64,000 bases of DNA, taken from NCBI RefSeq assembly GCF_003334765.1, contig NZ_QOWT01000009.1, one strand, 5' to 3'. The stretch comes from Escherichia coli (GTDB lineage Bacteria > Pseudomonadota > Gammaproteobacteria > Enterobacterales > Enterobacteriaceae). Shown here in pieces: positions 13,370-13,939 of the stretch. Under the pieces are notes generated by a model. That model was given only the letters and a program-made list of their open reading frames with translations, searched no databases and was not told where the DNA came from. The position numbers were made by a program, and so were the translations under genes. Position 1 is the first letter of the stretch. Each line of letters opens with the position of its first letter.

Positions 13370-13939
13370 CGGATCGCTGGTTATCTGTAAGTAATAATTA
13401 TTACCGTAATGCAAAATACCCCTGGCACAAGTTACATCCTTCATCAGTAAAACTTGTGCCAGATCAAATATAATTATCCCTCCATCATCGCTAAAAATTA
13501 ATATCTCTTCAGGTGAACGGTGTTTTTAATTTCAAAACGCTAACAAAAGTTAATTAACTATTATGTCACCCGCATTATGTGTATTTTTACCCACAAATGG
13601 GTAGATCAGATTAATCTATAAACCTAATGACATTTGCCCTGAGAACAAAAAATAGACCGATAAATATCAATAAGATAACAGCAAACAAAACATTAACATC
13701 TGCGCAGTACAAACTATAAACCCATCGCCAGAGAGTCTTTCTCTCTGAAAAAGCCGCTTATCACAGTGCATAAATTTGCCGCTGCTTTAATCAGCCAATA
13801 TTCACTGTGAGGTATTTGCTAAAGCCGGTAACGACCAAACGGATATTTAGTCAGGCTCTGAAAACAGTTCATACAAAACAGAACGTGACTGTGATCTATT
13901 CAGCAAAAATTTAAATAGGATTATCGCGAGGGTTCACAC
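13370..13939 (+). promoter_or_regulatory. Long AT-rich dcuB upstream regulatory region (expected DcuR/FNR/CRP-dependent promoter)
   Basis: 570-bp non-coding AT-rich spacer before dcuB; individual sites not resolved by eye. Confidence 0.5.

Follow-up and report, generated by a model that had tools for sequence, protein, structure and literature searches.

The long dcuR-dcuB spacer of Escherichia coli: a known multi-input control region of the dcuB-fumB operon with a proposed distal promoter and leader

DcuB is the main anaerobic C4-dicarboxylate/succinate antiporter; according to the literature, both fumarate respiration and gut colonisation require it, and a role as co-regulator of the DcuS sensor has been reported. 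The closest described system to the region considered here is the dcuB regulatory region of strain K-12 (RegulonDB/EcoCyc; Golby 1998, Abo-Amer 2004, Janausch 2004), which is the same locus, identical in sequence bar one single-nucleotide polymorphism (SNP), and shares with it all four inputs (DcuR, FNR, NarL and CRP) and both 5' ends, there being no difference in kind. EcoCyc, as described in a figure legend of the gut-evolution paper, marks boxes for DcuR-P, NarL-P, FNR and CRP as well as arrows for transcription start sites (TSSs) in the spacer between dcuR and dcuB. Hence, the spacer has already been described as a regulatory region that receives several inputs and has two 5' ends, and what we place beyond the curated K-12 region are predictions only: a leader hairpin with covariation, a candidate anti-Shine-Dalgarno (anti-SD) element, and a NarL 7-2-7 site over the distal TSS.

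The frdA and dctA promoters depend on the same activator, DcuR, and reportedly share the A/T-rich tandem hexamer type of the DcuR site, the motif being said to consist of tandem (T/A)(A/T)(T/C)(A/T)AA hexamers. The arrangement differs, as the DcuR site of dcuB abuts the -35 position and ends approximately 27 bp before +1, compared with what we take to be 86-94 bp at frdA and dctA, and the dcuB leader is much longer than at these promoters. Both frdA and dcuB are DcuSR-dependent in vivo, as reported in the literature. The FNR- and NarL-controlled promoters of nirB, nrfA, napF and fdnG have in common with dcuB the TACYYMT-N2-AKRRGTA inverted heptamers together with FNR, but at dcuB the predicted 7-2-7 site lies over the start site, and FNR is situated at -132.5 and not at the class II position -41.5. 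In the rpoS leader, it is established that an upstream strand masks the SD sequence and that small RNAs (sRNAs), DsrA, RprA and ArcZ, open this structure. The dcuB leader is also hundreds of nucleotides long, and the upstream strand of its candidate helix has a complement in a stress-specific sRNA, FnrS; however, this helix has only 7 bp, is a long-range one (approximately 200 nt), and is predicted without covariation.

We considered a stretch of 64,000 nucleotides of E. coli DNA (hereinafter, the window; assembly GCF_003334765.1, contig NZ_QOWT01000009.1), where dcuS (11022-12653), dcuR (12650-13369), dcuB (13940-15280) and fumB (15358-17004) are all encoded on the plus strand. Exactly 570 non-coding bases separate the last base of the dcuR stop codon from the dcuB ATG, with the GC fraction of 0.36 versus 0.51 window-wide. 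The original prediction of a long, AT-rich non-coding gap upstream of dcuB is thus confirmed to the base, and so is the claim that it exceeds the other junctions of the window, as it is the longest of approximately 40 annotated intergenic gaps (median 129 bp), the runner-up being 400 bp long (35551-35950). The gap between yjdM and yjdN is 557 bp in the annotation reference strain and approximately 357 bp in this window, the latter because of two fewer copies of an approximately 100-bp repeat. Of 5426 complete E. coli genomes, 5415 contain the dcuR-dcuB spacer, and no annotation lies beneath it. It differs from that of MG1655 by one SNP (13634, T vs. C), so that the K-12 literature coordinates carry over directly. 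The features discussed below are collected in the table.

Table. Features of the dcuR-dcuB spacer in window coordinates; positions of published gut alleles are named relative to dcuB.
Feature	Position	Strand	Basis or comment
dcuR-dcuB spacer (dcuB regulatory region and leader)	13370..13939	+	gene calls; conserved spacer length
Block just 3' of dcuR with palindrome GTAATAATTATTAC (13391-13404)	13380..13411		conservation
Perfect 12-bp inverted repeat, 17-nt loop	13422..13462		sequence, RNA fold
FNR site TTGTGCCAGATCAA, centre at -132.5 from the distal TSS	13454..13467		motif, ChIP-seq, conservation
DcuR-binding block, tandem WWYWAA hexamers at 13524, 13531, 13542, 13552	13521..13565		conservation, motif
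Gut allele IS2 -359	13581		abuts the distal -10
Distal DcuR-dependent promoter, -10 hexamer TATTTT	13582..13587	+	conservation, gut SNP
Gut allele SNP -354	13586		dcuB strand TATTTT -> TATTAT, improved -10
Predicted NarL/NarP 7-2-7 site TACCCAC-AA-ATGGGTA (TACCCACAAATGGGTA), spans the distal TSS	13588..13603		predicted, motif match
Leader of the distal-promoter transcript (~347 nt; TSS ~13593 inferred)	13593..13939	+	
Gut allele IS2 -338	~13598-13602		leader +6 to +10, inside the predicted NarL 7-2-7 site
Leader element CCCAUCGCC, candidate anti-SD, complement of FnrS nt 21-28	13721..13729	+	conservation, folding
Leader hairpin 2, CAGAGAG-ucuuu-CUCUCUG	13729..13747	+	covariation
Curated CRP site	13803..13824		RegulonDB/CoryneRegNet, from Golby 1998
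Curated NarL heptamers	TGAGGTA 13808-14, TACAAAA 13872-78, AGGATTA 13917-23, CACACAT 13935-41		from Golby 1998
Gut allele IS5 -118/-123	~13817-13822		within the leader
Proximal dcuB 5' end/TSS, -20 from the ATG	13920..13920	+	Golby 1998, via citing paper
dcuB Shine-Dalgarno region GCGAGGG, proposed partner of 13721-13728	13926..13932	+	invariant UCGCGAGGGU

We collected 80 dcuB loci from Enterobacterales. Among them, dcuR is situated directly upstream of dcuB only in Escherichia, Salmonella, Citrobacter, Trabulsiella, Intestinirhabdus and one distant case, and in the clade with this gene order the spacer is always long (552-910 bp). In 17 aligned spacers, the identity to the E. coli sequence is 88% for E. 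albertii and 54-61% for all others. A 70-bp block (13521-13590) that includes the DcuR box together with the -10 hexamer is essentially invariant across five genera; its second part is TGTGTATTTTTA, with the -10-like TATTTT. The full arrangement, comprising the FNR site, the DcuR block and the -10 hexamer, characterizes every one of the 30 clade loci and is missing from the other 50. The leader length inferred for other genera ranges from 311 to 574 nt.

Two features are localized upstream of this arrangement. The block immediately following dcuR is kept in Escherichia, Salmonella, Citrobacter, Trabulsiella and Intestinirhabdus; a Fur-box reading of its palindrome was dropped, as dcuB-fumB is unaffected by Fur (the Salmonella Fur paper). 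The inverted repeat next to it folds stably as RNA in both orientations (z = -3.2 for the plus strand and -3.5 for the minus strand); its left arm is Escherichia-specific and not conserved, its right arm overlaps the FNR site, and it may be a 3' hairpin of dcuSR.

The A/T-rich DcuR block is essentially invariant in the 17 spacers and shows the organization of a DcuR-activated promoter, with tandem hexamers upstream of a core promoter; a scan for DcuR sites in the spacer recovers the four hexamers listed. The block matches, both in position and in motif, what we take to be the DcuR footprint at dcuB, presumably located at -359 to -400 from the proximal TSS. The distal promoter is presumably also the one termed a 'new DcuR-responsive promoter' in the primary literature. 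Its -10 hexamer sits within the invariant TGTGTATTTTTA, there is no evident -35, and the DcuR block ends approximately 27 bp before the inferred TSS. A scan of the spacer for consensus sigma-70 promoters and terminators yielded no sites, fewer than in shuffled sequences, presumably because the distal promoter is activator-dependent and lacks a usable -35. Experimental data from the literature agree with DcuR control: DcuR-P shifts the 'dcuBp1' promoter DNA in EMSA, and deletion of dcuS or dcuR in EHEC abolishes the dcuB induction in vivo.

The position of the distal TSS was derived from three landmarks, that is, the FNR position at -132.5, the position of the -10 hexamer, and the promoter-up SNP. 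FNR ChIP-seq places the dcuB-fumB peak at 4,347,259 of an older genome version, with the site at -132.5 from the known TSS. We converted the coordinates using the gut-evolution paper, where 4,347,121 is given as -354 from dcuB; the centre of the peak then corresponds to position 13448 of the window. The only good FNR-like site near the peak is TTGTGCCAGATCAA, which matches TTGAT-N4-ATCAA in eight of ten positions, and which a motif scan of the spacer for FNR sites retrieves. Its TTGnG-N4-ATCAA form is conserved in nearly all genera, approximately 72 bp upstream of the DcuR block. This site combined with the distance of -132.5 implies that the TSS meant is at approximately 13593, that is, 347 nt before the ATG. 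The centre of the conserved site (13460.5) is then at -132.5 from the distal TSS and at about -460 from the proximal one, and the class II geometry, with the site near -41.5, is not observed for either. Thus, the FNR control of dcuB is real, given the ChIP peak, and its geometry is atypical. Another FNR-like site (13657-13670) was rejected as a footprint, since it is not conserved.

Mutations selected in the gut fall in the same area. In the mouse gut, E. coli repeatedly gained mutations in the dcuR-dcuB spacer, and a representative IS2 clone had higher anaerobic dcuB mRNA (the gut-evolution paper). When the published alleles were mapped onto the window coordinates, three of the four allele classes struck either the core of the distal promoter or the start site, a placement that would be hard to explain if only the promoter at -20 mattered.

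The distal start site is also the place where nitrate control may be exerted. Sources citing Golby 1998 credit that paper with the repression of dcuB by nitrate/NarL. The 16-bp site TACCCACAAATGGGTA conforms to the NarL/NarP 7-2-7 pattern (TACYYMT-NN-AKRRGTA) with one mismatch, and matches with at most one mismatch occupy just 3e-5 of the window positions. At the homologous position, a 7-2-7 site with at most two mismatches is seen in 10 of 14 species. The predicted site is missing from the curated dcuB NarL heptamers, the curated lists being derived from Golby 1998. Judged by the sequence, its location across the inferred TSS is that expected for a repressor. As for CRP, a scan for its core with at most two mismatches retrieved no site within the gap, and the curated CRP site is poorly conserved outside Escherichia.

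These observations suggest the following model. The main transcription start would be that of the distal activator-dependent promoter, at approximately 13593, which phosphorylated DcuR, bound to the hexamer block, would switch on and FNR would assist from its far-upstream site. The remaining approximately 347 nt after this start would be transcribed as a leader, and an additional, weak 5' end would be located 20 nt upstream of the ATG. Nitrate repression would probably be mediated by NarL acting on the predicted 7-2-7 site and, additionally, on the curated heptamers near the gene. We consider it very probable that the spacer corresponds to the composite region already known to control the dcuB-fumB operon, organized as in this promoter/leader model. 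The original prediction had proposed a regulatory region able to hold multiple regulator sites and a long leader; the former is borne out by the published and curated DcuR, FNR, NarL and CRP sites and the two 5' ends, and the latter agrees with a distal promoter that, given the inferred TSS, turns most of the spacer into the leader. The opposite picture, in which dcuB would have one nearby TSS and no additional sites, is not what we find.

If the leader is transcribed, it could be subject to selection as RNA. We aligned 24 leaders from CCCATCGCC to the ATG and applied RNAalifold, which yielded a hairpin (hairpin 2 in the table, followed directly 3' by GAAAAA) with compensatory changes. Both sides have changed in five of its seven pairs, one of them with the GC:AU ratio of 12:11. 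The number of cells with double changes is 23, compared with 9.0±3.4 in shuffles, none of 500 shuffles reaching this value. The whole tested structure is paired at 94% and this hairpin alone at 90.5%, versus 32-59% for slid registers, and its fold z-score is -4.0. Comparative sequence data thus show that the leader is under RNA-level selection, and it follows from the covariation that this DNA is transcribed and functions as RNA. Another hairpin, just past the TSS, was named by eye; it is moderately supported in non-Escherichia species (paired at 82% versus 20-43%) and is out of register in E. coli, and RNAalifold found no consensus structure in the first 70 nt of the leader. A permissive Rfam covariance search of the spacer gave two chance-level matches only (E = 0.5-0.9), far below the gathering score. 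Neither an intrinsic terminator nor leader-peptide attenuation is indicated, as we observed no terminator-like site and no upstream open reading frame (ORF) conserved within Escherichia. Hence, the statement that the gap contains no structured RNA is valid with regard to known families and is incomplete in that the comparative analysis reveals at least one covarying hairpin.

The same data bear on two alternatives to the promoter/leader model, both of which we consider highly improbable. If only the proximal promoter mattered, the upstream 350 bp would be AT-rich or decayed DNA that is not transcribed and carries remote, enhancer-like sites. The start at -20 from the ATG (window 13920), assigned to Golby 1998 by a citing paper and later re-mapped at -19, is indeed the only dcuB TSS given directly in the papers covered; further, every curated CRP and NarL site is situated within 140 bp of the ATG, and the E. 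coli spacer has lost segments present in Salmonella and Citrobacter. A sigma-70 scan revealed no good match upstream of 13920. This alternative would leave unaccounted for the covarying RNA hairpin, the invariance of the -10-like hexamer, inside which the selected up-mutation falls, and the FNR position given relative to a TSS at approximately 13593; the very name 'dcuBp1' implies more than one promoter. The other alternative is that the spacer hides an independent gene, either for a small protein or leader peptide or for a stand-alone sRNA, as the original prediction had allowed. An E. coli ORF of 30 codons (13627-13719) stops 2 nt before CCCAUCGCC, and homologous leaders of Citrobacter, Intestinirhabdus and Salmonella hold ORFs of 84-134 codons that stay open despite a divergence of approximately 40-50%. 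In Citrobacter and Intestinirhabdus these ORFs (102-134 codons) start at the conserved GTAGCAATGGAG and read through the element, the Salmonella version comprising 84-88 codons. However, the E. coli ORF has no SD sequence, is in a frame different from that of the Citrobacter ORF, and is not found in E. albertii, where there is no ATG; the gap in Escherichia contains only ORFs of 30-37 codons, in line with the earlier impression that no ORF is convincing. The substitutions in the long ORF are distributed near-uniformly over codon positions (dN/dS 0.35-0.73), it has no Pfam domain, and it matches only 24 clusters of 'hypothetical' proteins. The in-frame conservation and protein-like substitutions that would mark a small-protein gene were not observed, and given the substitution pattern, we rejected the long ORF of the Citrobacter leaders as a protein gene. 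The frame persistently open in Citrobacter, Intestinirhabdus and Salmonella may reflect selection for translation of the leader, which does not concern the E. coli window. For a stand-alone sRNA, there is neither an Rfam match nor a promoter/terminator pair. The suggestion of a small unannotated RNA or peptide in E. coli is thus not supported.

Within the promoter/leader model, the element CCCAUCGCC adjacent to hairpin 2 is a candidate for translational control. It is invariant except in one Citrobacter lineage. RNAalifold pairs CCCAUCGC (13721-13728) with the SD region GCGAGGG, forming 7 bp with one bulged A. We also folded separately 20 leaders of 341-604 nt, where the strands of the helix are 158-317 nt apart; the mean probability of the helix in partition-function folds was 0.48-1.0 in 18 leaders, and in 16 it was complete in the minimum free energy structure. 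The complementarity of the element to the SD is higher than expected both against random 13-mers (P = 0.005) and against permutations of the element (P = 0.02), and the element is the best SD complement of the leader, outperforming every other 13-mer there by 3 kcal/mol. When 347 nt upstream of each of 54 window genes were folded, the SD of dcuB turned out to be the least accessible one, with the unpaired probability of 0.03 (the next value is 0.15, the median approximately 0.38), whereas in the short transcript starting at -20 this probability is 0.60. If CCCAUCGC indeed pairs with the SD, the abundant DcuR-induced mRNA would be poorly translated unless the helix is opened. It should be noted that long-range pairs derived from thermodynamic folding are unreliable in vivo.

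Variation among species does not favour the helix uniformly. A covariation test of the helix gave no signal, both strands being invariant, and a scan of metagenomes for covariation revealed no compensatory variant, only a one-sided change of the SD. In Citrobacter NCU1/Awk4, the element is mutated, the SD is unchanged with no compensation, and the helix probability is approximately 0.01 or less. In metagenomic leaders resembling those of Salmonella enterica, the SD reads GCGAGGA and the element is intact, with the helix probability of 0.04-0.15; these leaders have acquired a new SD complement, UCUCGC, 10-18 nt upstream of the element, and their SD is approximately 75% paired. The respective segment reads UCUCAU in S. 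arizonae and S. diarizonae. Judging from the sequences, UCUCGC could be a case of partner turnover or a chance occurrence. All in all, it is possible, although in our opinion doubtful, that the approximately 347-nt leader is a translational control element acting through an SD-masking helix, as the folding models suggest.

The module formed by the element and the adjacent hairpin might instead have another role as RNA, such as docking of an sRNA or a protein, a function in RNase processing or stability, or a part in a Rho-dependent attenuator within a long untranslated leader, its complementarity to the SD being coincidental. This reading, which we regard as tentative as well, agrees with the perfect conservation of the element in the Salmonella-enterica-like leaders where the helix is largely lost, and with the unchanged SD where the element is mutated; furthermore, the hairpin next to the element covaries, indicating a function at the RNA level independent of the SD helix, and C outnumbers G in the first 128 nt of the leader (C/G = 1.44), as in rut regions. 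It does not account for the first rank of dcuB in SD occlusion among 54 genes, for the margin of 3 kcal/mol by which the element leads the SD complements, or for the gain of UCUCGC in the Salmonella variant, where the SD is mostly paired. One partner that would suit either role is FnrS, as the element contains an 8-nt perfect complement of its conserved loop: the complement of the element, GCGAUGGG, corresponds to nucleotides 21-28 of FnrS (checked in MG1655), in the loop of the first stem-loop, and the loop sequence AAGCGAUG is highly conserved in Rfam RF01796. By analogy with rpoS and DsrA, pairing of FnrS GCGAUGGG with CCCAUCGC would free the SD and boost anaerobic translation of DcuB. The physiology would fit, because FNR activates both fnrS and dcuB. 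The GC-rich 8-nt duplex has the energy of -16.0 kcal/mol, that is, -7 kcal/mol net of accessibility costs or -10 kcal/mol on the nascent leader, and leaders reading UGCCCAUCGC allow 9-10 bp of pairing. On the other hand, the match was noticed post hoc, its P-value being 0.002 for one sRNA and approximately 0.2 over approximately 100 sRNAs; the pairing requires opening of 2 bp of the FnrS stem; and the conservation of the loop is explained by its other targets. The RNAduplex prediction for full-length FnrS and the leader gave an unrealistic whole-molecule duplex with P = 0.29. The searchable literature contains no link between FnrS and dcuB. We know of no Hfq or sRNA dependence of dcuB. Hence, an FnrS-activated leader seems unlikely to us.

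As regards novelty, three features look new at the level of sequence, namely, the leader hairpin 2, the invariant CCCAUCGCC adjacent to it, and the NarL 7-2-7 site across the distal TSS; we found no description of the RNA features of the leader, including the possible SD-masking helix. The dcuB region is textbook regulon material and holds no surprise for a specialist. The present analysis adds a comparative map of selection in the spacer, the prediction that a NarL 7-2-7 operator covers the distal start, and evidence for a structured leader with a candidate anti-SD element; the mapping of the published adaptive mutations onto the distal -10 hexamer, the TSS/NarL site and the leader provides a mechanistic reading of adaptation in the gut. 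If the helix proves to mask the SD, it would constitute a post-transcriptional, oxygen-linked checkpoint on a transporter that also acts as a co-sensor of DcuS; and if the leader throttles translation, dcuB would be a compact case of a respiratory transporter controlled in layers, both transcriptionally and post-transcriptionally.

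Immediately 3' of the dcuR stop codon, the spacer between dcuR and dcuB carries a conserved block of 32 bp with the pattern GTTAT-N6-GTAAyAATTATTA-N3-TAATG, which is kept in five genera in the spacer comparison and in E. coli contains a perfect 14-bp palindrome, GTAATAATTATTAC. Reading this block as a Fur box is unlikely, because Fur had no effect on dcuB-fumB in Salmonella.

The block is followed by a perfect inverted repeat with 12-bp arms and a 17-nt loop; its left arm is found in Escherichia only, and its right arm coincides with the FNR-like site upstream of the distal dcuB start. 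The repeat folds strongly on both strands (z ~ -3.2 and -3.5), with GGGGUAUUUUG downstream of it on the minus strand. It may be the 3' hairpin of dcuSR or a bidirectional terminator. A second FNR-like match, CCGATAAATATCAA (8/10 positions), lies within the dcuB leader, and the spacer comparison showed no conservation of it beyond Escherichia.

The only difference of the spacer from that of K-12 MG1655 is a T instead of C, falling within a non-conserved ORF of 30 codons. Elsewhere in the window, a tandem repeat with a unit of ~100 bp occupies the yjdM-yjdN spacer, the window being two copies (200 bp) short of strain FORC 064; apart from this copy number, the two are 99.94% identical.

Features of the dcuB region and the window, with positions
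Feature	Position	Loci
Conserved block	window 13380-13411	
Inverted repeat	window 13422-13462	
T/C difference	window 13634	
Second FNR-like match	window 13657-13670	
yjdM-yjdN tandem repeat	window ~36298-36580	
Extra leader segments	leader ~+50 to +360	L009-L020, L024, L025
TTGACT/TAAAT pair	last ~40 bp before dcuB ATG	L009-L034

The leaders of Salmonella, the C. freundii group and Intestinirhabdus contain extra segments absent from E. coli. These segments comprise a near-consensus CRP site, CGTGAT-N-TGATCACA, and also an ORF of 84-134 codons, whose frame is open throughout the diverged lineages, yet evolves almost neutrally.

In three Salmonella-like metagenome leaders (L093, L108, L109) the Shine-Dalgarno region of dcuB is GCGAGGA rather than GCGAGGG. 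The segment situated 10-18 nt 5' of CCCAUCGCC, the invariant leader element and candidate anti-Shine-Dalgarno, contains UCUCGC in these leaders, a new complement to the dcuB Shine-Dalgarno region; S. arizonae and S. diarizonae have UCUCAU there.

Finally, in the non-Escherichia species TTGACT and TAAAT, separated by 16-17 bp, run up to the dcuB start codon; both hexamers are missing from the same stretch in E. coli. This pair is promoter-like and would yield a near-leaderless mRNA.
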